Assembly: GCA_964372855.1 (NCBI GenBank)
Contig: CAYJRY010000001.1
Span: 18,794 to 82,793 of the forward strand
DNA from: an uncultured Gammaproteobacteria bacterium
GTDB taxonomy: Bacteria > Patescibacteriota > Microgenomatia > Levybacterales > UBA12049
Length of the DNA stretch: 64,000 bases
Direction: 5' to 3'
Shown here: piece after piece, positions 8,056-42,568 of the stretch
How positions within the stretch are numbered: the stretch's first letter is position 1
Layout: each line of letters begins with the position of its first letter
Program-made: the position numbers and the translations under genes
The notes under the pieces: generated by a model
What the model saw: the letters and a program-made list of their open reading frames with translations, nothing else
What the model was told of the DNA's origin: nothing
Database searches by the model: none

Positions 8056-8651
8056 TGTTTTTTAACATTTTTAGTATTACGTAAGCCTACAATAAAGTCG
8101 TAATTAATTTTGGAAAATTGAGTTACAACTTGAAAAGTTTTTTTGTTTTTTTCATCTGATTTTTTTTCAAGATCCACAAAAATTTTTTGATGCATAACGG
8201 CCGATTGTGTTATTTTTTTATCCAGCCAGTCTGGAATTTTATTTTGTCTTATTAATGCGTTATTGTAGGCTTGAACAAGCATACTATAATAGTTTTCCCC
8301 TTTTAAGGCAGTTTCTGCAGCTAAATCATTCTTTCCTTTTTCCATTAGTAGTCTACTCGCAATTATCGTCTTATCAGCCATTAGCAAATTAAACTCAATC
8401 TTTTTAACTTGGTCAATGATAATCTTCTCAGCTATTTTGTTTCTTAAGACTTTAAGCTTATAAAGCCTATTATCTGGAAGCAATCCTACTGAAGATTGAA
8501 TATAGTCAACCGTATTCATTTTTAGGATTGCATTTTTCGCAGTACTTATAACACTAAACATAACAAATAATAAGAAACACATAATCCACAGTACCCAAGC
8601 TATTCTTAAAATTCCACTTCCATTAAAATAATTGGTAAAAAGATTATTCAT
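8052..8651 (-). CDS. Hypothetical membrane-anchored protein; possibly a distant relative of the secreted proteins at 32127 and 38610
   Basis: 199 aa. There is an N-terminal hydrophobic segment and then a hydrophilic region with no recognisable catalytic motif. It shows weak pattern similarity (LP..LY..K...EKI ... YY) to the two secreted paralogs. Confidence 0.3.
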   Translation of the reverse strand: MNNLFTNYFNGSGILRIAWVLWIMCFLLFVMFSVISTAKNAILKMNTVDYIQSSVGLLPDNRLYKLKVLRNKIAEKIIIDQVKKIEFNLLMADKTIIASRLLMEKGKNDLAAETALKGENYYSMLVQAYNNALIRQNKIPDWLDKKITQSAVMHQKIFVDLEKKSDEKNKKTFQVVTQFSKINYDFIVGLRNTKNVKKQ

Positions 8652-26775: not shown

Positions 26776-28101
26776 TTAACATCCAATTTCTCCAGGCTTC
26801 CCTATTATAACCATCTGCTTATTAATTCTCTTATAGTTTACATATTCTCTTAAATAATAAAATAATAGGAAAGTAAGAAGAATCAAAGAGACTATTACAC
26901 AAATAGACACTACTATAAAAAGTGAATCATGGTATAAGATTATAAGAAAAACCTGAGCAATAGCTGCCAATAAAACAGAAATATAGATATTGGTTTTTTT
27001 TATTGACAAAAAATAATACACAAAAAGCGAAATTAAAGAGTATATTGCTATGAATACTCCAAATAATCCTAGCAAACTAGAGGCGGATAAATATGCCTCG
27101 TTCTTTATGAAAAAAATTATGGCAAATCTTGGATACAAAAAATAAAATATAGAAATAAAAACAGAAGGAACAAATACCATAACAATCGCCATTTTGAAAG
27201 TATTGTTATAATTTTCTTTTTTTGCATGCTTTTTAATAATAAGAGGAAACATTACACTTCCTATAGGAGCTGTAAAGAAGAAGATAACCTTTCCGACTAA
27301 AGAAAGTCCAGAATAAATACCCGCTTGTACTGGGTCAAAATAATGCTTTACTAGCAAAATATCTGTTGAAATCAGAGATGTAATGCCTAAGAGAGTAATG
27401 GCTGAGGGAACTCCATAAGGAAGAATACTATTAAAACTAAACTTATACAAATTTATAGATTTTGTTAGAAAAACAAATCTCAGATAAAAAAACCCAAAGA
27501 TAATTGGCAATATAACTGAAATAAAAACTGCCCAAATTGCTCCTTTTACACCAAAACCCAAAAAAAACAAAATAACACCAACTAATAGTTTGGAAAATAA
27601 AGAAATAACATTTACAAAAGATATAAATTTGAATGCTAATTTTGCTTGTAAAAGTCCTCCACTTACAACTCCAATATAGGCAAAGCCAATAGTTATTCCT
27701 ATTATTACAATTATATTTCTATCAATCTTTAAAAAACGTCCTATCTGGTCTGCAAAAAACATAAAATAAAATAATGTAATAATGCTTACAATTAGAAGTG
27801 CTTTAATAATTTTTAAAGAGAATGTTTTAACAGAACTATAATCCTTTTTGGCGAAATGGGCTCCGGCAAAATTAACTATCATTGGAGTTAATGCTCCAAC
27901 GGGAATTCCAACAAGAGTAATTAATGAAATTGCGCTAATTAAGACTCCGTAATCTTCTGGAAGTAAATTTCTGCTCATAAATAAGTTGAAAAGCAAATTA
28001 AATATATTGGAGATAACAGAACCTATAAAAATATAGATACTTCCTGTCAACAATTCCTGCTTAAAAATCCTCTTGCTAAATAATAATATTCTTTCCTGCA
28101 T
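26776..28101 (-). CDS. Wzx-like flippase (second paralog)
   Basis: 441 aa, polytopic. The N-terminus IFIGSVISNIFNLLFNLFMSRNLLPEDYGV is homologous to 24880-26142. Confidence 0.6.
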   Translation of the reverse strand: MQERILLFSKRIFKQELLTGSIYIFIGSVISNIFNLLFNLFMSRNLLPEDYGVLISAISLITLVGIPVGALTPMIVNFAGAHFAKKDYSSVKTFSLKIIKALLIVSIITLFYFMFFADQIGRFLKIDRNIIVIIGITIGFAYIGVVSGGLLQAKLAFKFISFVNVISLFSKLLVGVILFFLGFGVKGAIWAVFISVILPIIFGFFYLRFVFLTKSINLYKFSFNSILPYGVPSAITLLGITSLISTDILLVKHYFDPVQAGIYSGLSLVGKVIFFFTAPIGSVMFPLIIKKHAKKENYNNTFKMAIVMVFVPSVFISIFYFLYPRFAIIFFIKNEAYLSASSLLGLFGVFIAIYSLISLFVYYFLSIKKTNIYISVLLAAIAQVFLIILYHDSLFIVVSICVIVSLILLTFLLFYYLREYVNYKRINKQMVIIGKPGEIGC

Positions 28102-29165
28102 TATTTCCCTGCAACTTTTCTATACACTAGTATAGTATCATCTATTGTTTTTTTCCAATTGAACTTTCTTGCCCTAATTAAACCTTTCTTATAAAGAGAC
28201 CCTTGAACAGACTCGCCTAAGAATACTTTCTTAATTCCACTGGCAATACTGTCAACATCATATGCATCAACAAAATATGCCGCGTCTCCCGCAACCTCAG
28301 CTAGCGATCCTTTTTTTGTAGTAACAACTGGGCACCCACAACTCATTGCTTCTAAAATTGGCAAACCAAAACCTTCATATAGGCTTGGCATTGTAAAAAC
28401 CGTTGCTATGTTATATAAAGTTACCAAATCTTCTTGAGGGATAAAGCCTAATATAAAAATATTTTTGTCATTTGCTGTTAACGTCCTCACTTTTGCGAGA
28501 TCCTGATTCCAGGGATTTTTTATTTCTATATCTTTTTCATCTAAAGCATGTCCCACCATTACCAATGGAATATCAATCTTTTTTATTGCCTCAATTAATC
28601 TTGGTAAGTTTTTATTCCATGTTACATCTCCAACATATAATGCAAACTTATTCGGTAAATTGTATTTTTTTCTAAAAATTTGATCTTTGACATTTGAAAT
28701 TTTATTTTTTTTAAATTCTTCTGAAGCGGCAAGGTAAACAACATGTGTCTTTTCATCCTTAATATCTGTAAAATTAATAATATCTTTTTTTGAGGACTGC
28801 GAATCTGTTATAATTGCTTTTGCTGAATTTAATGACATTTTCTGTAAATTCCATTTAATTTTTCCCCTGATTCCCGATGGAAAATATTTTTTAAAAACTA
28901 AAGGAGTTAAGTCATGAACTGTTACAATTGTTTTATGTTTTTTTAAGAAAGGTAGAGTTAAAAAAAACGGTTCAAAATAAGGATAATGAACTATGTCGGT
29001 ATTTTCGGGTATTTTTTGTTCTCGAGTAAAAAAAGTATACTTATTTTCGGGATAATATTGCAAAAGGAACTTTTTTAAATTTTTAATATAAAAACCTGTA
29101 CCCCTAACTCTGTGAGCAAGAAGGTTTTCACTTTGAATAGGAGAAACATCAATCGCGATATTCAC
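28101..29165 (-). CDS. GT4-family (GT-B) glycosyltransferase
   Basis: 354 aa. It has MPSLYEGFGLPILEAMSCGCPVVTTKKGSLAEV. An N-terminally similar remnant lies at 33666-33965. Confidence 0.7.
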   Translation of the reverse strand: MNIAIDVSPIQSENLLAHRVRGTGFYIKNLKKFLLQYYPENKYTFFTREQKIPENTDIVHYPYFEPFFLTLPFLKKHKTIVTVHDLTPLVFKKYFPSGIRGKIKWNLQKMSLNSAKAIITDSQSSKKDIINFTDIKDEKTHVVYLAASEEFKKNKISNVKDQIFRKKYNLPNKFALYVGDVTWNKNLPRLIEAIKKIDIPLVMVGHALDEKDIEIKNPWNQDLAKVRTLTANDKNIFILGFIPQEDLVTLYNIATVFTMPSLYEGFGLPILEAMSCGCPVVTTKKGSLAEVAGDAAYFVDAYDVDSIASGIKKVFLGESVQGSLYKKGLIRARKFNWKKTIDDTILVYRKVAGK

Positions 29166-29240: not shown

Positions 29241-29352
29241 TGCACCTTTTAAAACCCCGCAACTTGATGCGTGGGTTAGCATCGTTATTTTTTCGCGTGA
29301 GTCAATCCCGCACCTATTCGGTGCGGGATCAATATTCCACGAAAAAAAGGTG
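29241..29352. repeat. GC-rich palindromic element: a perfect 10-bp stem hairpin (ATCCCGCACC-tattc-GGTGCGGGAT, 29305-29329) nested inside outer inverted repeats (TGCACCTTTT / AAAAGGTGC)
   Basis: This is read directly from the sequence. It is the most GC-rich stretch in an AT-rich window. It overlaps the last 15 codons of the 29285-31018 CDS and lies about 75 nt upstream of the 28101-29165 start. It is a candidate terminator or structured RNA. Confidence 0.4.
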
Positions 29353-31018
29353 CTGGATTTATTTTGTATAAGAAGACGATAAGGATGCCTAAGGAAAATA
29401 AAGTGATATAAGTACTTACCTTCCTTACAAATGTGTCATTGAATTTAATCTCAACTAAATTTAGTCCTTTTTGTATTTTGAAGGTAAAAAGTCCATTTTT
29501 GGTTGCTTGAGCTTTTGTTTCTTTGTTATTCACATATACTACCCAATTAGGAAAATAGGCTGTGTTTACTTGCATCAATGATTGCTCAGCTGCTTCTACT
29601 TCAAACCTATAATAAGTACTCTTGATTGTATGGCTTTTTATTTTGCCCTCTCCTTTTAAAAACTCAATTTTTGAGTTTTGACTTTTAAGTTTGGTATCAA
29701 AAATAACAGTGTTAAAAACATTTCCAGGACTATTGGTTCCGTGAATAAAGTTAGATCGGCTAATGTAATAATTATCATCTCTATAATGATAATAAGCTGG
29801 GTTTGTATATCCTATCCCAAAAAAGAAAGAAGTCAAAATCAATACTATCCCCAACAACTTACTTTTCCAAAAATAAATAACTCCTCCGCTTAAAAACGAA
29901 GAAATAAGTATCTCAAGACTTAAAAATCTCCAAGGAAATTGAAAATAGTTCATAAAAATAACTGACTGCCAGATTGGTGCAGAACTCTTAAGCATCAGAA
30001 ATAAAATAAAGAAAAACCAAGCCAAAAAAAAGATAAGTATGCCCATCTGTTTCATCCCAAGCGACCCCAAGAATATATGCAGCCTCAAGTCAGCGAGATT
30101 GGTTCTCCCGATTTTCACAATGACTAACATTAAACACATAATTACCACTAATAAATTTGCTATCCCTATCTGGAATGACATTTGATTTGAAATATTTTCT
30201 CCAGAAAACCCAGAACCCCAAGAAGGAATAATAAGTTGATAAAAATCTGGAAAATGCCTTGAAACATCAAATATTTCAAGACCTCTTACGTAATCTCTCT
30301 CCAGTATCGCAGGCAACCAAAAAACAGTTGACAAACCAAGACCTAAAAGTATTAAGTATAAAGCATTAAGTATTAGGTATTTTTTATTTTGTTCTTTACT
30401 AATCAGGTATACAACATATGATAGGGCAAAAATGAAAAACATGAGAGCTAATATGTTGTGGGAGAATATAATTAAGGCCAAAAATATAGATGATAATATA
30501 AAAAAAGAATATTTTCTTTCTCTTATAAAATTAGCTATTGACCATAAAAACGCTGGAAAAAGTGCTAATGACCAAGCTTCCCCTACTGAACCTCTAATAT
30601 AAATATCTAAAAAATGATACGGCGAATATGTATAAAATACTGAAGAAACAATTCCTCCATTTACACCCCAAAAGTTTTTTGTCCACAAATAACAAAATAC
30701 TGCTCCTATAATTAATGATAAAAACATTTCTAATTTAAATATATCTATAAAACTTAAATTAAAAAATCTAAAAAAAGTAGCTATATAATTGGGTAATGGA
30801 TAAACATAATTAAAAAGAGGAACTCCAAATCCATTATTCAAATCGGGTGCCCAACGAGGATATAAATTACCATCCAAAAAAGTTTTGTTGAATTGATAAA
30901 ATCTTACTATATGATATTCTCCATCATGAGTCGGAGGCAAACCTTTGTGAAGTAGTGGTAATCCAGAAACGATAGCGAAAATAATAACAATAATTATCGG
31001 GTAAATATTTTTAACCAT
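29285..31018 (-). CDS. Large polytopic membrane protein, YfhO-like GT-C candidate (paralog group Y)
   Basis: 577 aa. It has more than 10 TM helices plus a C-terminal extracytoplasmic domain. Its first loop THDGEYHIVRF...NLYPRWAPDLNNGFGVPLFNYVYPLPNY is shared with 42550-44205 and, more loosely, with 54407-56923. Confidence 0.45.
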   Translation of the reverse strand: MVKNIYPIIIVIIFAIVSGLPLLHKGLPPTHDGEYHIVRFYQFNKTFLDGNLYPRWAPDLNNGFGVPLFNYVYPLPNYIATFFRFFNLSFIDIFKLEMFLSLIIGAVFCYLWTKNFWGVNGGIVSSVFYTYSPYHFLDIYIRGSVGEAWSLALFPAFLWSIANFIRERKYSFFILSSIFLALIIFSHNILALMFFIFALSYVVYLISKEQNKKYLILNALYLILLGLGLSTVFWLPAILERDYVRGLEIFDVSRHFPDFYQLIIPSWGSGFSGENISNQMSFQIGIANLLVVIMCLMLVIVKIGRTNLADLRLHIFLGSLGMKQMGILIFFLAWFFFILFLMLKSSAPIWQSVIFMNYFQFPWRFLSLEILISSFLSGGVIYFWKSKLLGIVLILTSFFFGIGYTNPAYYHYRDDNYYISRSNFIHGTNSPGNVFNTVIFDTKLKSQNSKIEFLKGEGKIKSHTIKSTYYRFEVEAAEQSLMQVNTAYFPNWVVYVNNKETKAQATKNGLFTFKIQKGLNLVEIKFNDTFVRKVSTYITLFSLGILIVFLYKINPAPFFRGILIPHRIGAGLTHAKK

Positions 31019-32130
31019 AACTTTTCTTTGAAAAGATAGAAAAATACTACTCCAAGTGGAAAAATAAATGTTAATATTGTTTTTATAATAGAAGTCTTAT
31101 CGTCATATATCCCCGTTAGCATGAAAGGTATATATCTAAGAAGTAGTCCAAGACTAAGCGATATGGATATAGCTAATAAAAACTTTCTTTGTGGGATAAG
31201 AAATGAAAATGACAAAAACCATATTGCATACCAAGGATATATTTCCTCTCTAAGTGGAGACATTAGAAATCCAAAAAACATTGCTAATGCCGAATAAAAA
31301 TATACTTTTCCCCAATTAATAGATTCATTCTTCAATTTTTTAAAAAATACATAAACAAAAATAGGCAAAAGAACAATAGTTGCATATTTTATAAAAACTG
31401 ACAATAAAAAAAATAAAACTGATAATTTAATTTTATTTTTCATTAGTAAAATGAAAGATAATAGTGCAAAAAAAATCATTACTATGTCATTATGGCCACT
31501 AACTAAAGTTTCTAAGACTACAAGAGGATTAAATGCAAATAGTCCAATGGATACTAATCTATTTGTCATTTTCCAAATAAGAAAAATGGTGCCAATATAA
31601 AATAAGGAAATAAGTAATTTAAAATTGAAAAGAATAAGTATAAAATTACTAAAACCAAACAAAAATGGAATCCCAGACATTAAAATCCAACTTGGTCCGT
31701 ACAACGCGATTTTATTTGCTGCATGAGTAAAAGAAAGTAAAGGATCTCCAACAAATTCAATCGGCATAATAATATATGGATTTTCCTGATAAAAAAATAA
31801 AACCTTTGAGGTAGCTATATAATTAAAAATATCATATGAAAGCATTGCAGGATATGAAAATAATAATATTAAAGCGGTTATTAAGATAATTAATCCGAAT
31901 TTTTTAGAGCTAAAGTAATTGTTCTTAATATATTTAAGAAATAAAAAATAAAATAAAAAACTTAAAAAAACAGTTAAAATGTAAATTATTGTTGTCTCCA
32001 ATCTATGCTTATATGAGAAACCAGAATAAATATTTTGTAGGTAACTAAAATTAGGATCTATAAATAAATAAGAACAAATAGCCACAAAAATTAGAAAAAC
32101 AAAATAAAAAACAATTAAAAATTTTTTCAC
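30994..32130 (-). CDS. Polytopic membrane protein, DUF2029/GT87-like GT-C candidate
   Basis: 378 aa, all-helical membrane protein. It has an SYDIFNYIATSKVLFFYQENPY loop motif. The C-terminal LGLLLRYIPFMLTG is echoed in the remnant at 38346-38564. Confidence 0.35.
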   Translation of the reverse strand: MKKFLIVFYFVFLIFVAICSYLFIDPNFSYLQNIYSGFSYKHRLETTIIYILTVFLSFLFYFLFLKYIKNNYFSSKKFGLIILITALILLFSYPAMLSYDIFNYIATSKVLFFYQENPYIIMPIEFVGDPLLSFTHAANKIALYGPSWILMSGIPFLFGFSNFILILFNFKLLISLFYIGTIFLIWKMTNRLVSIGLFAFNPLVVLETLVSGHNDIVMIFFALLSFILLMKNKIKLSVLFFLLSVFIKYATIVLLPIFVYVFFKKLKNESINWGKVYFYSALAMFFGFLMSPLREEIYPWYAIWFLSFSFLIPQRKFLLAISISLSLGLLLRYIPFMLTGIYDDKTSIIKTILTFIFPLGVVFFYLFKEKLWLKIFTR

Positions 32131-32645
32131 AATACTCTTTTTCTAATATTAATAGCACTATCAATTGATTTAGCTAAATCAAGAAATATGGATGAGCTTT
32201 TCTCGGGTTCCCAATTAAATGTTTTTGGAATTTCTTCTAAACTTCTAAGAACTTCTCTGTGTTTTATCTCCGCTTCTTTAAGAAATAATTTATTATGGGA
32301 AATATCTTTTTTTTGATCGGCCTTTATATAATGTATAGTTTTAAGAAAATAAGAATCTGATTTTTTAAGAGCACTGATTCCAAGCAAATACTGTCTGTAT
32401 TCAAAGAGAGTTTTTGCCTCAACTAAATATTTATCTGAGTACTTCAGATTATATTTAAACTGCCCTAAATCACCAAAATACCAAAACTTGGATATTTTTT
32501 CCCAAATAAGTTTTATTGTATATAACTTACTTCCTGGCATACCTGATGGATACGGAAGCACGTAGTTTGATTCTGCAAGGCTGATGTTACTGAAAAATAT
32601 TAAGAGGAACAATGTGGGCATCAGTACCCAAAAACATCTTATCAT
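32127..32645 (-). CDS. Secreted/signal-peptide protein of unknown function (paralog S1)
   Basis: The likely true start is the internal Met (MIRCFWVLMPTLFLLIFFSNISLA), which makes an ATGA overlap with the upstream stop. The mature region YVLPYPSGMPGSKLY...FGDLGQFKYNL...YLVEAKTLFEYRQYLLG...HREVL is about 55% identical to 38610-39125. Confidence 0.45.
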   Translation of the reverse strand: MIRCFWVLMPTLFLLIFFSNISLAESNYVLPYPSGMPGSKLYTIKLIWEKISKFWYFGDLGQFKYNLKYSDKYLVEAKTLFEYRQYLLGISALKKSDSYFLKTIHYIKADQKKDISHNKLFLKEAEIKHREVLRSLEEIPKTFNWEPEKSSSIFLDLAKSIDSAINIRKRVL

Positions 32646-33640
32646 TTTGAATTTTGAATTTTGAATTTTGAATTTTTTGTGTGCCATTCAAATGCAGTTG
32701 CAACAATAGTTTCAAGATCAGAATATCGAGGTTCAAATCCAATCTCCTTCTGAATCTTTTTTGCGTCAGCTATTAGAGCTTCTGCGTCACCACTTCTCCT
32801 ACTTTTTACTTTAACCTTTAGCGTTTTTCCTGAAACTTTTTCGACCATTTCTATTACTTCTTTATTCGAATAACCTATTCCTGTCCCAATATTATAATAA
32901 AATCCCCCCTTATCTCGATTAATTTTATCAAGAGCCAAAATATGGCCCTCAATAAGATCTATGACATGTATATAATCTCTTATGCAAGACCCATCGTAAG
33001 TATTATAATTAGATCCATATAAATTAAATTCAGTGTCATTTATAGCTGCATCTATTGCCAATGGAATAATATGTGTTTCAGGATTATGCAATTCTCCTAA
33101 TTTACCATCGAAAGAAGCCCCTCCCGCATTAAAATATCTTAGACTTACGAAACTTAGCCCTACATTATTTTGAAAATAACTTAACATTTTCTCAACTTCA
33201 AGCTTGTTTTCTCCATAAGGACTAGTTGGATTTTTCGGGTGATCCTCAGGAATTGGTATTTTAATAGGATTACCGTAAACCGCGGCTGATGATGAAAAAA
33301 TTAGTTTATCTATATTTCCTTTTCCAATCATTGTTTCGACAAGATTTTTTGTTCCTGTTACGTTATTCTCATAATATTTCTGCGGATCTTTTGTTGATTC
33401 TTCAACGGAAATGTAACCAGCAAAATGCATTACAGCATCAATTATTTCATCTTGAAATAAATTCTCAAGAGTTGCTTCATCTTTAATATCGCCACTTACA
33501 AATTTTGCCCTGTCGTCAATAGCTTTTTTATATCCTCTCTCCAAACTGTCAAAAACAACAACCTTATTATCTAGATCAAGAAGTCGCTTAGTCATAAAAC
33601 TTCCAATATATCCTGCTCCTCCTGTAACAAGTATTTTCAT
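32642..33640 (-). CDS. UDP-glucose 4-epimerase-like (GalE-family) extended SDR
   Basis: The true start is probably MKILVTGGAGYIGSF. The ORF-track start at 33715 adds 25 atypical residues. It has SSSAAVYG...YGENK catalytic motifs. The C-terminal tail is encoded by the 7-bp repeat. Confidence 0.7.
   Translation of the reverse strand: MKILVTGGAGYIGSFMTKRLLDLDNKVVVFDSLERGYKKAIDDRAKFVSGDIKDEATLENLFQDEIIDAVMHFAGYISVEESTKDPQKYYENNVTGTKNLVETMIGKGNIDKLIFSSSAAVYGNPIKIPIPEDHPKNPTSPYGENKLEVEKMLSYFQNNVGLSFVSLRYFNAGGASFDGKLGELHNPETHIIPLAIDAAINDTEFNLYGSNYNTYDGSCIRDYIHVIDLIEGHILALDKINRDKGGFYYNIGTGIGYSNKEVIEMVEKVSGKTLKVKVKSRRSGDAEALIADAKKIQKEIGFEPRYSDLETIVATAFEWHTKNSKFKIQNSK
32645..32672. repeat. Perfect heptanucleotide tandem repeat (TTTTGAA)x4, followed by a T6 tract
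   Basis: Read directly: ttttgaa ttttgaa ttttgaa ttttgaa tttttt. It lies in the last codons of the GalE-like gene (encoding ...KNSKFKIQNSK*) and immediately abuts the coupled start of the secreted-protein gene. Confidence 0.8.
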
Positions 33641-33665
33641 ATAAAAAATTCCCACATAATCGTAT

Positions 33666-33965
33666 CTATACCGATCCCGAATCGTTATAACTATGACACA
33701 ATCCAAAATCTTCATATAAAGATGGCATTATAGATAGTGTTAGAAAAAGTGGTTCAAGATATGGATAATATACTATATCAATATTTTTGGGTAATTTTAC
33801 TCCTCGAGTAATAAAAATGTTCTTATTATTTGGAAAATAATTTAATAGAGAGCTTTTTAAGTTTTCTATGTAAAACCCTGTTCCCCTTACCCTTTGCTGG
33901 ATGTCTGTTGTATTATTTATAGGAGAAATATCCATTGCAATATTCATTTCCTTATTATACAACAA
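33666..33965 (-). pseudogene. Remnant of a GT4 glycosyltransferase with an internal deletion
   Basis: The 99-aa ORF joins an N-terminal segment homologous to 28101-29165 (MNIAMDISP...VRGTGFYIENLK...DIVYYPYLEPLFLTL) directly to the C-terminal MPSLYEDFGL motif. About 250 aa of GT4 core are missing. Confidence 0.55.
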
Positions 33966-34113
33966 CTCTTGTATTGTTGCTTTATTCTATAAACAACTGC
34001 CCCCAAAGGAATTTAGATCTAAAATTCAAAACACTTCAGAAAGTAATTTCTGAGCATACAATAAAACCGAAGAGATGGAGATTATTTCTAGAAGACAGGT
34101 TTTAATTAAAGAT

Positions 34114-35244
34114 TCACTTATGCTTTAAGTTAAATGCACTTAGACCAAGAAGAGGAATAAGAAAGGTAAAATACGCGTGAGTTGTCCATTGGCTTAGTAC
34201 TAGATAAATAAACATAATTACTCCTGAGGCTACAAAAACTTTATTAAATGAATCAAATCTAAAATATCGAAATAAAAAAAATACTGTAGCAAGACTACCT
34301 ATGGTTCTAACTCCCCACATTTGCTCTGTTGAAAAAGTAATATGTAACGTGTCTTTTAGAAAAACCCATATATTCCATCCCCATATTGTATGCCAGTTTG
34401 TCAATTCTATAAAAGAAATACTACGAAAAAATCCTTGAGGCGCAAATAAAATAAAAGGTCCTGAAACAATAATAATGGTCAATAAAAAATGAAAAATGTA
34501 GCGCTTGTTTGAAATTGGCAAAAGGTTTTTATTCTGGTAAATGTATGGAATAAAAAATAGCAGGTAAAAAAATACGTGGTGCTTGAAAGATGCTGCAAAC
34601 CCTAAGATTATTGCGCTTAGAATAGCATAAAAACGGCTTTTATTATTAACCGAGTAAATAAATAGTATTATTGATAAAAGTAAAATAAATATTGTACTAT
34701 TATCATTACTTCCATCAGCTGATAAATCGATTAAAAATGGCGTTAAAGACACAACAGCAAACAAAGGTAATATTTTCATAGTTTTTAAAATCCTTCCGTA
34801 GATAAGTATCAAAACTGGCACAAAAGATGAAACAAGCATCTCAAAAAAACGCAAATCAATATTTAAAATATATGCGGGTAAATACCAAAAGAGGCTAAAT
34901 GGCAAATAGGTAAAAGGGGTTAATCCACTTTGTGCCATAATCATTTCCTTATAGACATTTTTTCCATTAACGAAATAACCAATATAATCACGAACTGCCA
35001 TCAGAGCATCGGATCCATATGTGGAGGTATGATATTGAATTATTCTACCTAAAGTGCCAAAAATTAATAGATATAATATGAGAGGGTAAAAAGATTTCTT
35101 AAAATGGAACAGTAGAATAAAAAGCGGCATTAAGGCAAGAGCTACAATAAAAAGCCAGTCAGCGCTATTGTGCACAATTAAAACAAAGCTGACAATAATT
35201 GTTGTCCAAAAAATCCACTCTTTATCGTTTTGATTTCTTCCCAT
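34114..35244 (-). CDS. Polytopic membrane protein, DUF2029/GT87-like GT-C candidate
   Basis: 376 aa, about 10 TM. The GSDALMAVRDYIGYFVNGKNVY loop resembles that of 30994-32130. Confidence 0.35.
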   Translation of the reverse strand: MGRNQNDKEWIFWTTIIVSFVLIVHNSADWLFIVALALMPLFILLFHFKKSFYPLILYLLIFGTLGRIIQYHTSTYGSDALMAVRDYIGYFVNGKNVYKEMIMAQSGLTPFTYLPFSLFWYLPAYILNIDLRFFEMLVSSFVPVLILIYGRILKTMKILPLFAVVSLTPFLIDLSADGSNDNSTIFILLLSIILFIYSVNNKSRFYAILSAIILGFAASFKHHVFFYLLFFIPYIYQNKNLLPISNKRYIFHFLLTIIIVSGPFILFAPQGFFRSISFIELTNWHTIWGWNIWVFLKDTLHITFSTEQMWGVRTIGSLATVFFLFRYFRFDSFNKVFVASGVIMFIYLVLSQWTTHAYFTFLIPLLGLSAFNLKHK

Positions 35245-35512
35245 ATTTTTTGATCAACAGACTATATTATAACATCGTATACTGTAAAACACTATGAAAT
35301 AAAGTGTTGCTTGAGATACAAATTTGGCCTTTGTTGTTATCGAAGTATCTTTAAACTTTACCTCGATTTGATGTTTGTCTGGAGTCTCGTTAAATTAAAT
35401 TATCTTATCAGAATCTGATCCTGCTGTTAATTTTTTTGATCAATAAATACGTTCCATCCAGGAATATAAGCGATATTAACTATTATATTTGATTTCGAAA
35501 AAAACAGAAACT

Positions 35513-36760
35513 TTACATAAGTGCTTGTATTCCAAGTATGTGTAAAAATATTGCCATTGCTATACCTAGAAGGTAAAAAGGGTTGATTTTTCCTTTTATC
35601 CCAAGAATAGAAAGCAATAGAAGTAATACTGTAATATCAAGGGAATACCTGTAACCAAACTGCATCCAACCAGTGCTGTAAATCATAAGAGATGGCAACA
35701 TTACAATAATTGCCGTTAACCAAAGTGAAAAAAGATAAGGATTGACAGTAAATTTTTTCTTAATTTTTGTAATGGGTATTGCTAAATATGCCGTAAGAAA
35801 TGGGAGTGTTAAAATAAAAATAGAATTACCATTTAAGTTGAAATCAAGTGAAAATTTTCCATTAATAAAACGAAGCTGTGGAGATTCAAAAAGCATATAC
35901 CAAAGGTTATTAGGGATATGAAAAATAGATACAGCCCCTTTTGCTTGCCTTATTTCCGCAAGATACGGTGACTCTTGAATGTAAGTATAACCGTATTCAA
36001 AGACGGTTCCAAATCGAAAGTAGTTATAAAGGAAAAAAAGTATGCTAAAAAATCCAAGGGGTAGACCAAAAATAACAATTGCCTTTAAAAATGCATATGC
36101 CTTTTTTTTAACTGATCCTTTCGATACAATAAAATGTTCCCACAGATATAAGAATCCAGGAAGGAGAACGAAAAAAACAATTGTTGGCCTACCAATTAGA
36201 GCAACACTAAAAACAAGCGTGCTGAAGAAATAATCCCATATTGATCTATGCTTTTTAAAAACGATATATGTTCCAAACACGCCCAAAAATGTTGTTACCA
36301 TTTGATCAACATGCCAAGAACTTCCCAGCGTCCCTACATAAAAGTGTGTTGTCCCAAAAGTAAAAAGTATTATGAATAAGAAAATGTTTCTCTGAGTAAG
36401 AAGAGGAAGAAATTCTTTTTTAACTCGCTGTAACAACAGATAGACAATAACTACATTGAGACTTGCAAAAAATATGGTAAGGTATATTGTAGGAACAAAC
36501 CTTTGTTTTATAAGCTGCAAGGGAATTAAAAAAATTGCCGAAAGCACTCCCCACGGGGCATACCACTTATCTTTATACTCAATAAGATCATAGGTATCTA
36601 TAGGATTTTGTATATCAAGACGAAGTTGCAAAATGGATTTTGCCAGTGGATTAAAATGATCATGGGCCCATTTTGGCTTAAATGAATACTGCGTTGAAAC
36701 TGCAAAATAAACAATAAATGTAACAAAAAAAATACCCAAACAATAGAAAAACTTTTTCAT
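35513..36760 (-). CDS. Polytopic membrane protein, uncharacterised GT-C-like/polymerase-like
   Basis: 415 aa. It has more than 10 hydrophobic helices. No catalytic motif was recognised. Confidence 0.3.
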   Translation of the reverse strand: MKKFFYCLGIFFVTFIVYFAVSTQYSFKPKWAHDHFNPLAKSILQLRLDIQNPIDTYDLIEYKDKWYAPWGVLSAIFLIPLQLIKQRFVPTIYLTIFFASLNVVIVYLLLQRVKKEFLPLLTQRNIFLFIILFTFGTTHFYVGTLGSSWHVDQMVTTFLGVFGTYIVFKKHRSIWDYFFSTLVFSVALIGRPTIVFFVLLPGFLYLWEHFIVSKGSVKKKAYAFLKAIVIFGLPLGFFSILFFLYNYFRFGTVFEYGYTYIQESPYLAEIRQAKGAVSIFHIPNNLWYMLFESPQLRFINGKFSLDFNLNGNSIFILTLPFLTAYLAIPITKIKKKFTVNPYLFSLWLTAIIVMLPSLMIYSTGWMQFGYRYSLDITVLLLLLSILGIKGKINPFYLLGIAMAIFLHILGIQALM

Positions 36761-36763
36761 ATC

Positions 36764-38380
36764 TTAGAGCTTATAGACTATAACATCATCGTCCCAATAG
36801 ACTCTCTGTAAACTTTTATCTAAATAATCTTTTTTAATATTGTAATGAAAATCTACAACTGATTTCTTTGGTACCACAATATAGGAAATTGATTCTTTTC
36901 TTATCTGCGCCAACGTTTCTTCGGAATCAGCCTCAAAGTACAGTTTTGCTTGGCTTAATCTTTCTGTATAATTATAACCCATTACTGACAAGTAATAATT
37001 GTGACCGAGATAATTTTTTCTTCCAGACAATGTTACTGGATCAAGAATCTCTTGTCTTGAAAGAAATATATCTTTCTTTTGAGTATTTATTTTAATCCAA
37101 TGCATGAACTCATTTTTTGGTGCATCATGTAGATAAAATTGAAAATCATTTTTAATAGCCATTATATTTATAACACCTGAAATTGTTAATAAAAAAAATA
37201 ATATTCCGCATAGAAGTTTTCTAAAATAATTTCCTGCAAATATTTTTACTAAAAAATAACCAATATAAAAATTTGTAAAAATAAAAAAGAAATTAAATAA
37301 TGAATGATTATGATCAATTCGAAAACTTAACTGAAAAATATTTCCAATAATAAAAAGTGGTAATACGCTTAGAAAAACAAGTTTTTGTTTTCTGTCAGCA
37401 ATGAAGTATCCTAAAGGTATAAGAAAAAAAGCAATTCCTAAATTTACAAACCAAAATTCAACAAAATGTTCGATCGTGAATGGTTTTTCAGAAAGGAATC
37501 CTGGATTAAAAACTGAATGATTTACATCTTGATGTAAGATATCTTTTGCATGAAAACTAAATATCAGTAATGTAGGTATAAAGAAGGGCAGTATAAAACG
37601 AAATCGTTTGAAGAAAATAAAAAGAAGAAATATAGCAAGTGCAGTAGAAAAAAATGTTAATGTGTGAAAACGAGAAAGCACTCCTAAAACAATTCCAAGT
37701 AACATAAGAATTTTGTAAGTTATTTCTTTTCCATTCATAATTTTTGGTAAGAGAATAAATAAAAGGGTTAGGCTTATTGCAAGAGCTGCAATAAAATGTC
37801 TTTGATTAAGATAGATATTCAAAGTAAAAAAGATTGATATTAAAGATCCATCAAAAGGCCCCTTATGGATATAATCAGGCAGATACCAAAAATCTTTAAT
37901 TAAAGATAAAGAAAATCCTTTTTCTTTAAAAAAGTCAACAAACGTTAGACTGTTATTGAACAAAAAAAGAAGAACAGATACAATGCCAAGAATTATGTTT
38001 TTTGAGAATATGACCTGTGGAAGTTTATAGATCAAAAATAACAATGCCGTAAAAAATATTACACTTAATCCATTAAAAGCAAAATCAATTCTCAATCCAA
38101 TTTTTTCCAATATTCCTACAAGAAAATCGAAATAATAATGATAAGGAAATGGTTTTCCTGGAAAAAATGGTGATTCAGGCGGTATATTGTTGCCCAAAGA
38201 AATTGACCTTATTAACGATAAATGTAATCCAAAATCTCCTATTTGATGTCTGGCAATTCTAATACTACTTTGTTGACTGTCATAACCAAATGATTTAAAC
38301 ATAAACCACATGGAAAAAATAAAAAAAGTAATAAGAAGAAAAATATCAAATTTTCTTTTTAATATAATTGTATAGTCCAT
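36764..38380 (-). CDS. Polytopic membrane protein, YfhO-like GT-C candidate (paralog group Y, divergent)
   Basis: 538 aa. The first loop HQIGDFGLHLSLIRSISLGNNIPPESPFFPGKPFPYHYY parallels the H..G..H...GN.YP...P...G.P...Y pattern of group Y. It has a C-terminal soluble domain. Confidence 0.35.
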   Translation of the reverse strand: MDYTIILKRKFDIFLLITFFIFSMWFMFKSFGYDSQQSSIRIARHQIGDFGLHLSLIRSISLGNNIPPESPFFPGKPFPYHYYFDFLVGILEKIGLRIDFAFNGLSVIFFTALLFLIYKLPQVIFSKNIILGIVSVLLFLFNNSLTFVDFFKEKGFSLSLIKDFWYLPDYIHKGPFDGSLISIFFTLNIYLNQRHFIAALAISLTLLFILLPKIMNGKEITYKILMLLGIVLGVLSRFHTLTFFSTALAIFLLFIFFKRFRFILPFFIPTLLIFSFHAKDILHQDVNHSVFNPGFLSEKPFTIEHFVEFWFVNLGIAFFLIPLGYFIADRKQKLVFLSVLPLFIIGNIFQLSFRIDHNHSLFNFFFIFTNFYIGYFLVKIFAGNYFRKLLCGILFFLLTISGVINIMAIKNDFQFYLHDAPKNEFMHWIKINTQKKDIFLSRQEILDPVTLSGRKNYLGHNYYLSVMGYNYTERLSQAKLYFEADSEETLAQIRKESISYIVVPKKSVVDFHYNIKKDYLDKSLQRVYWDDDVIVYKL

Positions 38381-38564
38381 AGAAATCTGGCGGAGAAAAA
38401 GAAAAAAGCTCTTTTAATTTTTGAACTGGCAAATGATAATTACCAGCTAGTATGTGCGGTATATATTGAAGAAGTAATCCAAATGAAAAAGTAAAACCTA
38501 TCTTTAATAGATATTTTTTTGCGTCACAAGTACAATAAAGCTTAGAAACCATATTGCATGCCAA
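38346..38564 (-). pseudogene. C-terminal remnant of a paralog of the 30994-32130 membrane protein
   Basis: The 72-aa ORF ...KYLLKIGFTFSFGLLLQYIPHILAGNYHLP aligns with the tail of 30994-32130 (RKFLLAISISLSLGLLLRYIPFMLTGIYDDK). It occupies the same position relative to a secreted-protein paralog. Confidence 0.45.
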
Positions 38565-38609
38565 AAATATATTTCTTCTCTTATTGAAGCAAGAAGAAAA
38601 TAGATTTTT

Positions 38610-39125
38610 TCATATATTATCCCTTATTGAAATCGCTTCCTCAATAGACTTATGCAGATAAAGTACTGTTGGCAGATCTTTCTCCGGTTCCCATTTAAAG
38701 GTATTTGGCACTTTTGATCGAATATTATTTAACACTTCCCGATGTTTTTGTACTGCACTTTTAAGTATTTTCTCTTTTTCAGTGATATCTCTTCCTTCAT
38801 TTTTTGACATCAGTAAATGCGGTTGGATATTCCCAAAGTAGAAATCAGATTTTTTTAATGCATTGTATCCTAATAAATATTGTTTGTATTCAAATAGTGT
38901 TTTTGCTTCAACCAAGTAATTGTCTGATTGATCTAGATTGTATTTAAACTGACCAAAATTTCCAAAAAACCAGTATTTTTTGAATTCATCCCATATCATT
39001 TTAACTTCATAGAACCTATTTCCTGGCATGACAGATGGATAAGGCAAAACATAACTTGATTCGGCGTAAACAGATGATGACATGGCTAAAATTAAAAATA
39101 AAAACAATACTAGAATCTTTTTCAT
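38610..39125 (-). CDS. Secreted/signal-peptide protein of unknown function (paralog S2)
   Basis: 171 aa. It has the signal peptide MKKILVLFLFLILAMSSSVYA. The mature region is about 55% identical to 32127-32645. Confidence 0.45.
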   Translation of the reverse strand: MKKILVLFLFLILAMSSSVYAESSYVLPYPSVMPGNRFYEVKMIWDEFKKYWFFGNFGQFKYNLDQSDNYLVEAKTLFEYKQYLLGYNALKKSDFYFGNIQPHLLMSKNEGRDITEKEKILKSAVQKHREVLNNIRSKVPNTFKWEPEKDLPTVLYLHKSIEEAISIRDNI

Positions 39126-39146: not shown

Positions 39147-40310
39147 CTACAATCTTCTCAATCTTACTCTACTCCTGTAAACTAAATAGTAAACCTCATT
39201 GACTGTGTAAACTCCAACAATAAATTGAACAGGAAGAAGAATAAGAAGAAATCGTGACGATACAACACCCAGTGAAAGAAATATTTCATATATAAATATC
39301 CATATTAGAAGAAATAATATTTTTGATGAAAGTTTTATGATATTTAATCCCGCCAACAAAATAAGAAAAAATGGCAATAATGTAAAGATTGGCCAGGTTA
39401 TTTGCCAGTCATCAGCAGTTAATATCTTCATCTCACCCCACCAAGATTGCCATTGATTAAAAAGAACTAACTTCCAGTATGAAAATGGGAAAATGAGTTT
39501 ACTTTGTTGATAAAGAAAAATCCATTTTTGGAATCCTATAAAATCTAAAAACGTATAACCATTTAAAAAAGTTTTTATATAAGAAAATATCAAAATCATT
39601 GCCGTTATTGGAAGAGTCATTAAAAAAAATATTAAATTTTTGTGAAGTTTATTTAATGCTAAAAATATGGAGCAACAAGCAATAAGCAGTATTCCTGGAA
39701 CAACAGTTTTTGTTGCCATTACAAGCCCTATGGAAATTGATGTAAGAAAAAAACTTCCCTTTTTATACCCTCTTAGAAAAAAATAAAGAGCAAAGAGAAC
39801 AAATGGTAACTGAATAATATCTAAAAGAGGAGTAAAAATAAGCTGGTTAATAAAAATCTTTTCAAATGACAGAAGGACTAATGGAATAATAGCAATTATT
39901 TTACTACCTAAAACGACATATCCTAATAGCCATAAACTATAAAGTGTAATTATTCCAAATGGAATTACAATAAAGCTATCATTCTTAAAAAGATATATTG
40001 ATAATGCTATAAAATATTTACCAAGTGGCGTATGTTCGGAGTTTACTAGAATCGGATCAACGCCCCTTAAGTACGCTCCTGCAGCATAACTAAATACAGT
40101 TTCATCTGGGATTATTCCTGGTTTTTCTTTTTGTCGGTATTGAGAATGGTTAAATGCATTTTCTAGGTTTTTATAATAAGCTTCTGTATACCATCCCCCA
40201 AAATATTTGCTATTATTCTGAACAAAAACAGATCCAATCCTATATATGATTACCAAAAGTAAAGTAAATACAATAATTTTCTTCATTATTGAAATCAGAT
40301 TACAAGTCAA
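39147..40310 (-). CDS. PMT/GT39-like polytopic glycosyltransferase candidate (protein O-mannosyltransferase family), short form
   Basis: 387 aa. The first loop IIPDETVFSYAAGAYLRG...EHTPLGKYFIALSIYLF matches the PMT signatures (FDEVHFG...Y and HPPLGK..IAL). It is a paralog of 56938-59079. Confidence 0.5.
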   Translation of the reverse strand: MTCNLISIMKKIIVFTLLLVIIYRIGSVFVQNNSKYFGGWYTEAYYKNLENAFNHSQYRQKEKPGIIPDETVFSYAAGAYLRGVDPILVNSEHTPLGKYFIALSIYLFKNDSFIVIPFGIITLYSLWLLGYVVLGSKIIAIIPLVLLSFEKIFINQLIFTPLLDIIQLPFVLFALYFFLRGYKKGSFFLTSISIGLVMATKTVVPGILLIACCSIFLALNKLHKNLIFFLMTLPITAMILIFSYIKTFLNGYTFLDFIGFQKWIFLYQQSKLIFPFSYWKLVLFNQWQSWWGEMKILTADDWQITWPIFTLLPFFLILLAGLNIIKLSSKILFLLIWIFIYEIFLSLGVVSSRFLLILLPVQFIVGVYTVNEVYYLVYRSRVRLRRL

Positions 40311-40316
40311 ACTAGC

Positions 40317-41804
40317 CTATGGCTGAAGCTCAAACCACCATCGCGCATATTGGTCATACATGTTAGAAAAAGTAATAGGTTTCCATCCTGCCTTAAGTAT
40401 TGCAGACTCTGATGCGCTTGAAAAATCTACTATGCCAATATTGCTTAATATCGGATACTCACTTTTAAAATTAGTTTTTCTTGGTAATAAGCATTTTTCT
40501 CGCAATCCAATCTTCACACCCCTTTTATTATATTTATGTTTCGCTTCTAGGGCTAAAACAATAGAAAAAGCAGAGCCATTATAGAATGAATGATACTTTT
40601 TCGAACAAGTATATAGTAAGAAACTACTTTTTGGATATTTTTTTTCCAAATCATTTACTCCATTATATATCAACATACTAAATCCATCTTTTTTAAGCTC
40701 AGATGCTGTTCTGGGATATGAAAAAAAAATAATTAAAGGTATTAATATTAAACCAATATAAATTTTTCTATAGTTTAAATTAATAATTGCAAAAGTAGTA
40801 AAAATAAATACAAATGGCCGCAGAAAGTTAAGATATCCGAAAAATCTGGGTCCCCAATAATATCTAAGTAAAATAAAGTTAACTAAAAATGCAACAATAA
40901 GCAAAATTAAATTTATCGATAATTTCTTTTTATAAGCAAACCACAGAAAGAGGATAAAAAACAAGATCATTATTAAACTAGAAAACCAAGACGGAACTCC
41001 TAAGGCATCTGCCCAAAATGCAGGCCAAAAATCTCTCACATAGAATAACCATCTGTTGGGAACATATATAGCATTTTTTCCTTCAGTAATATAATAGAAA
41101 ATATTTCTAGTTGTAAACCAATGGTTATTCATTTCAAATATTAACATTGGGATAAAACTTATGACTACGCCTAAAGCGCTAAATACAAAATTTATGAATT
41201 TTCTTTTATATAAAAAAAGGACAAGCGGAAGGATTAATAATCCACCCATCTGAAAATGTAGATTCATCCCCACTCCTATAACAAAACCAAACAATAAGCT
41301 GAGCCACTGTGATTTCTCTTTAGATATGAGTATTAAAAAAAGCCAGATTGCCAAAGCGGCAAATAAGTTGGTATTATTATGACTAGTTAAATGTGTTGCT
41401 GATATTACTTGTGCAGGAGAAATGGCGGCTATAAAAGAGACGATTAAACCAAAGTTGTCTCCGCCTAAAATTTTACCGATTTTGAACATTACAAAAATGT
41501 ATATCACTGAAATAATACTTAAGTATATCCAAGGAGAATATACAGATGGAAAAATAAGATAAAATAAAATTAATTGATATGCGTACCATGGTCCAAATGT
41601 AAATGGACCAAGAGACGAAAAAGATCCTGTCAGAGGAAACTGTAATTGTCTTGCGCCTTCAATTCCTATTACAGCATCTCTAACTGTTTCCTCACCTAAA
41701 GAATATCTATAAGGGTAATTATAAAATCTTAAAAATGTGCCAAGAATCAATATTCCCAAAAAAATATAGAAATGCAATTTTTGCTTTCTAAGAAAAGTTA
41801 TCAT
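40317..41804 (-). CDS. GT-C-like polytopic membrane protein, member of the D-x-x-R-D first-loop family
   Basis: 495 aa. It has LGEETVRDAVIGIEGA...LTGSFSSLGPFTFGPWYAY, the same loop architecture as 44206, 45718, 47233, 52892 and 61051. Confidence 0.45.
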   Translation of the reverse strand: MITFLRKQKLHFYIFLGILILGTFLRFYNYPYRYSLGEETVRDAVIGIEGARQLQFPLTGSFSSLGPFTFGPWYAYQLILFYLIFPSVYSPWIYLSIISVIYIFVMFKIGKILGGDNFGLIVSFIAAISPAQVISATHLTSHNNTNLFAALAIWLFLILISKEKSQWLSLLFGFVIGVGMNLHFQMGGLLILPLVLFLYKRKFINFVFSALGVVISFIPMLIFEMNNHWFTTRNIFYYITEGKNAIYVPNRWLFYVRDFWPAFWADALGVPSWFSSLIMILFFILFLWFAYKKKLSINLILLIVAFLVNFILLRYYWGPRFFGYLNFLRPFVFIFTTFAIINLNYRKIYIGLILIPLIIFFSYPRTASELKKDGFSMLIYNGVNDLEKKYPKSSFLLYTCSKKYHSFYNGSAFSIVLALEAKHKYNKRGVKIGLREKCLLPRKTNFKSEYPILSNIGIVDFSSASESAILKAGWKPITFSNMYDQYARWWFELQP

Positions 41805-42568
41805 AAAATCCTAAGATACTTAAGGTAAGAAACCGGAAATCTTAATGCTGAAAAAAACGAAAAAACAAATCCAGGGAATACATCCATAAATCCCTTATGT
41901 CTAATATATGTAGTTAAAAACCAATGAACAGGCTTAATCAACAAATAAACTAATCCATAATAGAAAATGTAGATAATGTTTTTATTTTTTAATTTATTTT
42001 TAAGCTGCGAAGAAAGAAGATCGCAATACCTAGTCCATTTATGTATATAATCGCCAAATCCTTTGTAAGGATAGTGAAGGAGAGGGTGGATCAAATATCC
42101 TACTTTTCCATCTATTATTGCCTGTTCATGAACATCTCTTTGAGGTAAATATCCCTTTCCTTTACGATACAACCTTAGGGTATAATCTGGATATTGTCCT
42201 CCTTTAGTTAAAAATCTTCCCAAAAACCAATTTTTTCTTGGAATCCAATATCCGCTTACGCGGGAATTTCCAATTTTTTCTTTTATCTCTCTAGCAAGAT
42301 CTGATGTTACCCTTTCGTCTGCATCCAGCTGAAGAATCCAATCTTTTGTTGCCATATCTATTGCTATTTGCTTATTAATATGAAATATTGGTTTGTTGTT
42401 TGTAATTTTTACGCGAGCATTGAATTTTTTTGCAATTTCAACTGTATTATCGGTAGATAAACCATCTACAACAACAATTTCATCTGCTAAATCTTTTACT
42501 AATTCAAGACAATCTTCTATGTTTTTCTCCTCGTTATAGGTTGCCAAAACTATCGAAAGCGATGCCAT
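41801..42568 (-). CDS. GT2-family glycosyltransferase
   Basis: 255 aa. It has SIVLATYNEEKNIEDCLE...IVVVDGLSTDNTVEIAK and LDADER motifs. Confidence 0.6.
   Translation of the reverse strand: MASLSIVLATYNEEKNIEDCLELVKDLADEIVVVDGLSTDNTVEIAKKFNARVKITNNKPIFHINKQIAIDMATKDWILQLDADERVTSDLAREIKEKIGNSRVSGYWIPRKNWFLGRFLTKGGQYPDYTLRLYRKGKGYLPQRDVHEQAIIDGKVGYLIHPLLHYPYKGFGDYIHKWTRYCDLLSSQLKNKLKNKNIIYIFYYGLVYLLIKPVHWFLTTYIRHKGFMDVFPGFVFSFFSALRFPVSYLKYLRIL

Follow-up and report, generated by a model that had tools for sequence, protein, structure and literature searches.

A DUF5667-subfamily secreted protein encoded beside a GT-C membrane glycosyltransferase in a two-cassette glycan locus of Levybacteria

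What does a small secreted protein do beside a membrane glycosyltransferase, and why has one of two such pairs in a single locus lost its transferase? These questions are raised by a stretch of 64,000 nucleotides (here called the window, to which all coordinates refer) from contig CAYJRY010000001.1 of an uncultured bacterium whose GTDB lineage lies in the Levybacterales. Two of its genes, sec1 and sec2, encode similar proteins with signal peptides; sec1 is followed by the gene for an intact membrane protein, mem378, and sec2 by what is left of a second gene of that type. A preliminary description, made from the letters alone, had taken this for a duplicated gene pair with decay of one member, and had suggested that the secreted proteins were partners or substrates of the transferases. 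All open reading frames (ORFs) of these units lie on the minus strand, and the four principal features are as follows.

32127-32645, minus strand: sec1, a 172-residue secreted protein of the YVLPYPSxMPG subfamily of DUF5667; the signal peptide ends ...SLA and the mature protein begins ES.
38610-39125, minus strand: sec2, a 171-residue secreted protein of the same YVLPYPSxMPG subfamily, intact and well conserved.
30994-32130, minus strand: mem378, an intact 378-residue membrane glycosyltransferase of predicted GT-C fold, MptA_B family.
38346-38613, minus strand: GT-C pseudogene remnant of a second mem378-type gene, comprising the coupled ATG and, split over two frames, the final ~85 codons.

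A secreted protein encoded with a membrane transferase

By pairwise protein alignment, sec1 and sec2 are 54% identical over 151 residues (E 2e-56), in line with the roughly 55% first described for these two homologous proteins; at the DNA level, the alignable part comes to 231 nucleotides at 72% identity. Both match the Pfam family DUF5667 (PF18915) over nearly the full profile, at 21.6 bits (E 2.9e-4) for sec1 and 19.2 bits (E 1.7e-3) for sec2, scores below the gathering threshold of 27 bits. Precomputed PF18915.6 matches are attached to many close homologues, and in an exhaustive profile search the sec profile also retrieved typical long DUF5667-like proteins. By this profile homology to bona fide members, sec1 and sec2 are assigned to a subfamily of DUF5667, and the earlier label "of unknown family" can be dropped. 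The subfamily comprises at least 1450 database clusters of proteins of ~175 residues that are 50-63% identical to the query, and those homologues whose sources are named come from Levybacteria and Patescibacteria. A literature search found no paper mentioning DUF5667, and the family has no assigned function.

The mature N-terminus of these proteins reads [E/Q]-S-x-YVLPYPSxMPG, with Y, L, Y and P invariant among 198 motif-containing sequences, and the alanine at the signal-peptide cleavage site is conserved in 184 of the 198. At the serine of YPS the same sequences hold 185 S, 1 T, 7 P, 3 G, 1 Q and 1 D. An AlphaFold (AF2) model of sec2 is confident (predicted local distance difference test, pLDDT, 89.6) and consists of the signal helix, a coil arm at the N-terminus (pLDDT 63-79), five helices packed as a bundle, and a small hairpin. 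A Foldseek search of the PDB with this model gave no meaningful match, the best (E 0.6) being to generic helical repeats. When scored against a hidden Markov model (HMM) built from other genomes only, sec2 reached 234 bits, the 85th percentile of the family, and sec1 210 bits, the 15th percentile; no decay was visible in sec2 by this score.

The model of mem378 has a GT-C transmembrane fold, with Gpi14, ALG3, ALG6 and PimE as best matches; these are lipid- or glycan-directed enzymes and not protein transferases. Invariant motifs of its family are D100 (in SYDIFNY), HND and REExYPWY. D100, a candidate for the acidic catalytic residue of the first extracytoplasmic loop of GT-C enzymes, is invariant in sets of 30 and of 36 homologues and follows helix 75-89 in the model, in a loop region of pLDDT 43-62. 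The family name rests on precomputed annotation, PF26314.1 (MptA_B_family) being listed for P0121, a protein 100% identical to mem378, and for all 120 listed homologues; our own Pfam scan of mem378 returned nothing at E<=0.1, PF26314 included. The preliminary description "DUF2029-like" is fair as a statement of distant similarity, but mem378 is not a member of GT87 (PF09594, formerly DUF2029), which it matches at 11.1 bits (E 0.33) against a gathering threshold of 25 bits; weak GT87 matches occur in 9 of 30 homologues (best E 9.8e-5). Similarly, the MptA equivalog TIGR03459 matches residues 43-268 at 23.8 bits (E 1.9e-5), far from its curated cut-off of 439 bits. The PDB sequences were also searched with the GT-C family profile, and nothing was found.

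The GTG start of mem378 overlaps the stop of sec1 (GTGA), and the ATG of sec1 at 32645 in turn overlaps the stop of a GalE-like gene. For comparison with other genomes, 80 sec loci (given L numbers below) were taken from species-representative genomes, whose informative names are all Levybacteria, Gottesmanbacteria or Patescibacteria. A mem378 homologue lies immediately 3' of the sec gene in all 76 loci that could be tested, the contigs of the remaining 4 ending too soon, and all 76 of these orthologues are full length. The sec stop and the GT-C start overlap by 4 nucleotides (ATGA or GTGA) in 56 of the 76, and by 8-20 nucleotides in nine more. The gene order kept over ~80 species-level genomes is YfhO/PTPS-related, GT2, (PMT_2 GT-C), GalE, sec, GT-C, (36764-type, 35513-type), YfhO-like, GT4, flippase, GT2, where types are named after window genes by start coordinate; in four loci (L003, L008, L031 and L046) the order is sec-mem-36764-35513-29285. 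Record titles of many loci (L002, L004, L007, L008 and others) read "uncultured Gammaproteobacteria bacterium" and one reads "Woesearchaeota archaeon"; on loci of Levybacteria type, these look like mislabelled bins.

In addition to adjacency, the sec domain is found fused to neighbours, and two genes upstream of sec2 are needed to describe these fusions.

39147-40310, minus strand: 387-residue multi-pass membrane protein upstream of sec2, separated from it by a 21-nucleotide gap; translation probably begins at M9 (40286).
41801-42568, minus strand: GT2 glycosyltransferase with a hydrophobic C-terminal tail (PF00535, 72.5 bits), the canonical first gene of the unit.

Two fusion proteins of 564 residues each, P0258 and P0254, carry N-terminal portions of ~385 residues that are 49% and 37% identical, respectively, to the 387-residue protein, and P0263 is a truncated protein of this type fused to sec. 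P0258 was found in two samples and in canonical context, the MptA_B gene following with a 4-nucleotide overlap. In P0264 (the ORF of L075) and P0316, a GT2 of the 41801 type is fused to the sec domain, and the window's own GT2 is 50% identical to the N-terminal part of P0316. The fusion loci are L075, L082 and L083. In the fused forms the sec signal peptide becomes an internal hydrophobic segment in which the signal-peptidase motif is kept. Five loci of Gottesmanbacteria type have an unfused gene of the 39147 type, placed next to sec and the GT-C gene or in the space separating the two. An apparent 841-residue fusion of GT-C and YfhO in L072 was rejected, since a masked stretch of N accounts for it.

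Taken together, the adjacency, the stop/start overlaps and the gene fusions strongly back a functional link between sec and the GT-C enzyme, as the preliminary description had supposed. Nor is sec2 stranded beside its dead transferase: 21 nucleotides upstream of it ends the gene for the 387-residue protein, which other metagenomes encode as a fusion with the sec domain.

Two cassettes and their remnants

The window holds two divergent, partial, tandem copies of a conserved envelope-glycan cassette of Levybacteria and Gottesmanbacteria, arranged head to tail. Further genes of the two copies are listed here.

32642-33640, minus strand: GalE-like NAD-dependent sugar epimerase (PF01370, 185 bits), upstream of sec in most loci.
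29285-31018, minus strand: 577-residue membrane protein related to YfhO/PTPS, normally the next gene after mem378.
28101-29165, minus strand: intact GT4 glycosyltransferase, to which the remnant at 33666-33965 is paralogous.
33666-33965, minus strand: GT4 pseudogene remnant at the end of the first cassette, directly upstream of the GalE-like gene.
36764-38380, minus strand: 538-residue membrane protein of the first cassette; follows GT-C in a minority of related loci.
35513-36760, minus strand: 415-residue membrane protein of the first cassette; follows GT-C in a minority of related loci.
34114-35244, minus strand: 376-residue membrane protein of the first cassette, with a weak PMT_2 match.

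Copy A (~41800 down to 33666) comprises 40317, 39147, sec2, the dead GT-C, 36764, 35513, 34114 and the dead GT4; it is without GalE, and its GT-C and GT4 genes are fragmentary through internal deletions while the sec gene is intact. Copy B (33640 down to 28101) comprises GalE, sec1, mem378, 29285 and GT4, and is intact. The GT4 remnant shares 59% identity with the N-terminal part of the intact GT4 at 28101-29165 (E 2e-29) and, when mapped against more than 60 orthologues, consists of three joined pieces (approximately residues 1-74, 257-268 and 294-303) left by internal deletions; it marks the junction of the two cassettes. Because of this second remnant and the conserved gene order, the duplicated unit is a multi-gene cassette and not the gene pair first described. 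A comparison with NCBIfam did not yield informative names for the membrane proteins nearby.

For the GT-C remnant, the extent was mapped by three-frame reading and by tblastn with 77 family members. The 72-residue ORF at 38346-38564 aligns with residues 315-358 of mem378 (41% identity, E 3e-8), and the family HMM of 30 homologues matches the remnant over profile positions 313-370 (E 3e-10). The similarity to the C-terminus noted earlier was correct, but what survives extends beyond the 30 C-terminal residues then described. Its ATG at 38613-38611 still overlaps the sec2 stop (ATGA), the first frame reads FLLASIREEIYFWHAIWFLSF... and is 60-70% identical to family positions ~286-317, and after a frameshift near 38515 the second frame covers family positions ~313-371. 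About 275 internal codons are missing, so that ~85 of 375 are left. Of the 12 most conserved columns within the surviving part, 10 are kept and 2 (each >=90% conserved) are altered, Y301H and R332Q. A Logan assembly of run ERR3478686 (L001), made independently, has the same arrangement. Truncated, frame-disrupted and with conserved residues lost, 38346-38613 is a pseudogene, and the decay of the second membrane gene to a fragment, as first reported, is real. A possible reason for the survival of the coupled start and the last quarter is that the next gene (38380) begins within this 3' end. A six-frame translation of the window searched with the family HMM gave no mem378-family copy beyond mem378 and the remnant, and the window holds no further copy of the sec or mem378 families beyond those given here.

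Both the GT-C and the GT4 remnants resemble bacterial pseudogene erosion, with internal deletions, a frameshift, few changes at conserved sites and intact flanking genes, and the decay of copy-A genes is ordinary genome evolution. A recent tandem duplication inside this genome, with rapid divergence and decay of the second copy, would agree with cassettes that run head to tail on one strand, with remnants exactly where they would be expected, and with sec1 and sec2 falling in the same broad neighbourhood of a neighbour-joining tree of 82 sec proteins, a tree that is itself star-like and poorly resolved. However, the between-copy identities (54% for sec, 59% for GT4 and 44% for the GT-C remnant) lie only in the range seen between species, no near-identical DNA is common to both copies, and 79 of 80 other loci hold a single copy. 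Nor are sec1 and sec2 mutual nearest relatives, each ranking only 11-14 of 81 among the other's neighbours. The GT-C remnant, moreover, keeps its 10 highly conserved columns and ends ...KKKI, as in loci with genes of the 36764 and 35513 types, which would fit a different locus variant; the copy-A genes were therefore under selection for most of their divergence and inactivated late. A recent in situ duplication does not fit the two copies and is unlikely; they agree better with an old paralogy or with acquisition of the second cassette from another Levybacterium. Of the earlier claim of segmental duplication followed by decay, the paralogy of the modules and the decay stand, while a simple duplication is not shown by copies that are no closer than orthologues across species.

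Multiplication of the locus is not unique to the window, since assembly JBBTYY01 has the complete GalE-sec-GT-C locus twice, once on the contig of L036 and once on that of L048, with the GT-C gene intact in each. The GC skew at 34001-38000 is about zero or slightly positive (+0.03, 0.00), against mostly -0.04 to -0.23 in neighbouring regions of minus-strand genes, which could reflect either the amino-acid composition of membrane proteins or a different origin of copy A.

At the junction of GalE and sec1 a short repeat was noted.

32644-32676, no strand assigned: perfect 7-nucleotide tandem repeat, 4.7 copies, at the junction of the GalE stop and the sec1 start.

The repeat encodes the epimerase tail ...KNSKFKIQNSK. 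An array of period 7 is found at the same junction in 14 loci (L002, L006, L007, L008, L009, L019, L022, L023, L028, L031, L048, L052, L054 and L067), at 3.7-4.9 copies and 26-34 nucleotides, with differing units (AATTCAA, AATTTGA, AAATCTC, AAGTTAA, CAAAACT, AAAAATG and others); period and length are thus conserved and sequence is not. By chance, approximately 1 of the 91 period-7 arrays would be expected to fall at that junction. No such 7-nucleotide repeat is present at sec2. The element might act in translation or coupling, or might be a slippage hotspot.

One further relative of the sec proteins lies outside the sec/GT-C units.

8052-8651, minus strand: distant DUF5667 paralogue with an N-terminal membrane anchor.

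Flagged earlier as a possible distant third copy, it proved a genuine but distant relative, at 25-26% identity to sec1 and sec2 (E 6e-8 and 1e-9), E 1.3e-9 against the sec-family HMM and 29.6 bits against Pfam DUF5667, which passes the 27-bit threshold. It is without the YVLPYPSxMPG motif, overlaps a downstream epimerase gene and has no GT-C gene next to it.

The window as a whole (1-64000), and especially 26776-63311, is nearly all one minus-strand glycan-assembly locus with more than 12 large multi-pass membrane proteins, many of them PMT_2- or YfhO-like. Paralogous pairs of membrane proteins include 48512/50182 at 41%, 44206/45718 at 30% and 29285/42550 at 31%, and the flippase-type genes 24880/26776 form a further pair at 39%; six sugar epimerases or dehydratases of the short-chain dehydrogenase/reductase type are also present. 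A 92-residue ORF at 52566-52844 matches only the N-terminal ~60 residues of the GT-C-like genes 48512-50164 (43%) and 50182-51768 (35%) and is probably a third gene remnant in the locus.

Role of the secreted protein

We propose, at a rough probability of 0.55, that sec is a secreted accessory subunit of the GT-C transferases. In this scheme, GalE would supply a uridine diphosphate sugar, GT2 would load the sugar on polyprenyl phosphate, and the lipid-linked sugar would be flipped across the membrane, where the minimal GT-C, a transmembrane core only, would transfer it to an envelope acceptor on the outside. The sec protein would be exported through Sec, cleaved after the conserved alanine, and held as a roughly 1:1 non-covalent extracytoplasmic subunit that stabilises the GT-C or binds the acceptor, with the invariant arm [E/Q]-S-x-YVLPYPSxMPG as docking element. 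The Levybacteria-type group is presumably single-membraned, and the word "periplasmic" used earlier is loose for the space in question. It is further proposed that the sec domain also serves, or is fused to, the 387-residue protein upstream of sec2, which would be why sec2 stays conserved after the death of its GT-C; the losses in copy A are put down to recent removal of redundant genes.

Two other roles have to be set against an accessory subunit. The sec protein might instead be the acceptor, as the preliminary description had suggested, its proline-rich arm (S-x-YVLPYPS) being O-glycosylated by the downstream GT-C on leaving the Sec channel, so that the two sec proteins would be two substrates of the one remaining transferase. 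Conserved serines in an unstructured, proline-rich arm would suit this, as would the conservation of sec2 without a transferase of its own. Yet the YPS position is not strictly a hydroxyl residue, the substitutions given above weakening this serine as a strict O-glycosylation site, and the best fold matches of the GT-C are to lipid- and glycan-directed enzymes. One enzyme for each 150-residue substrate, in strict 1:1 translational coupling over ~80 species, would also be unusual for an enzyme-substrate pair, and in-frame fusion to a GT2 or a membrane protein suits a subunit better; we regard the acceptor role as rather improbable. Low probability is likewise given to a role of sec in the pathway apart from any stable complex with GT-C, as a carrier or chaperone of lipid-linked or polymeric intermediates, or as a chain-length or regulatory factor that is merely co-transcribed. 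There is an analogue in mycobacteria, where the lipoprotein LpqW steers intermediates between GT-C mannosyltransferases. A helical bundle with no specific match among solved structures, a cleavable signal peptide with no anchor, and distant DUF5667 proteins such as 8052-8651 in glycan loci lacking an adjacent GT-C would all agree with such a role. Against it, the two genes are neighbours wherever this could be tested and their stop and start codons overlap as a rule; recurrent fusions to membrane-embedded neighbours, and an invariant arm motif suggestive of one fixed protein partner, also speak against it.

Several points weigh against the accessory-subunit proposal itself. The putative sec-GT-C complex is backed indirectly, by adjacency, overlap and fusions. 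Having neither a membrane anchor nor a lipobox, sec could simply be released, and the fused forms keep the signal-peptidase site; fusions of tightly packed, overlapping genes can, besides, arise from loss of a stop codon. The full conservation of sec2 beside a dead GT-C would be expected just as much if sec were a substrate or acted on its own. Donor, acceptor and flippase of the scheme are all hypothetical: of flippase-type genes, only the Wzx-type Polysacc_synt ones (24880 and 26776) lie nearby, and the core unit yielded none of GtrA or MATE type. The neighbour-joining tree is too poorly resolved to separate in situ duplication from acquisition. The GT-C nature of the 387-residue protein is at best weakly and indirectly suggested by links to PMT_2-type GT-C enzymes. 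Pfam scans gave a PMT_2/PMT/AftD match in 1 of 9 sequences aligned for its family, a search of the PDB sequences with the family profile found nothing, and as a candidate relative of the GT-C family it was set aside after an hhalign comparison of the two families gave a probability of 12%, with no relationship shown.

Known systems and wider meaning

The nearest precedent for an accessory-subunit role is glycosylphosphatidylinositol mannosyltransferase I, in which the GT-C enzyme Gpi14 (PIG-M) works with an auxiliary subunit, Pbn1 (PIG-X), on the non-cytoplasmic, luminal side (PMC12653191). Pbn1 is beta-rich, membrane-anchored and eukaryotic, whereas sec is a 150-residue helical bundle, cleaved and unanchored, that shows no detectable similarity to it. 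Compared with the mycobacterial enzymes MptA/MptB and PimE, mem378 is only 13-15% identical and scores far below the family cut-offs (23.8 vs 439 and 11.1 vs 25 bits). To our knowledge, bacteria of the candidate phyla radiation (CPR) do not make mycobacterial-type lipoglycans, and we know of no small secreted partner gene for MptA, MptB or PimE.

Three-component extracytoplasmic glycosylation systems (GtrABC; CsbB-GtcA-YfhO; GT136), which the proposed scheme would resemble, are comparable in that the present locus brings together a GT2 that could form a lipid-linked sugar, a GT-C, an auxiliary epimerase and flippase-type genes. The GT136 prototype, a three-component system with an auxiliary epimerase, carries a substrate-binding module as the C-terminal part of its GT-C, the role that is proposed here for sec (PMC11127046). 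The present loci differ in that the extra module is secreted as a protein of its own in all but the minority of genomes that have fusions, and their activities are predicted from gene content. Within Pfam DUF5667, sec stands out as a compact, highly conserved subfamily that has a distinctive N-terminal motif and invariably a GT-C gene next to it. Literature searches on Levybacteria with glycosyltransferase and on Patescibacteria with GT-C found nothing relevant, and as far as could be found the conserved unit of DUF5667 subfamily and GT-C, with its fusions, is undescribed.

A broader proposal, which we offer tentatively as possible rather than probable, is that the YVLPYPSxMPG subfamily provides minimal GT-C enzymes in Microgenomatia with a new kind of secreted extracytoplasmic subunit that acts in trans. 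At least two unrelated membrane proteins would make use of it: the downstream GT-C of MptA_B type, and the upstream 387-residue protein, with which it sometimes forms a fusion. The ~32-nucleotide element of period 7 at the GalE/sec junction would tune its expression. If true, this would be a first function for DUF5667 and a "split GT-C" architecture. DUF5667 is now tied to a specific, testable partner, a minimal GT-C transferase, by adjacency over ~80 species-level CPR genomes and by independent fusions. These bacteria give very large loci to GT-C enzymes, with more than 12 in the window alone; GT2, sec and GT-C make up a defined two- or three-protein unit that offers a tractable entry point.

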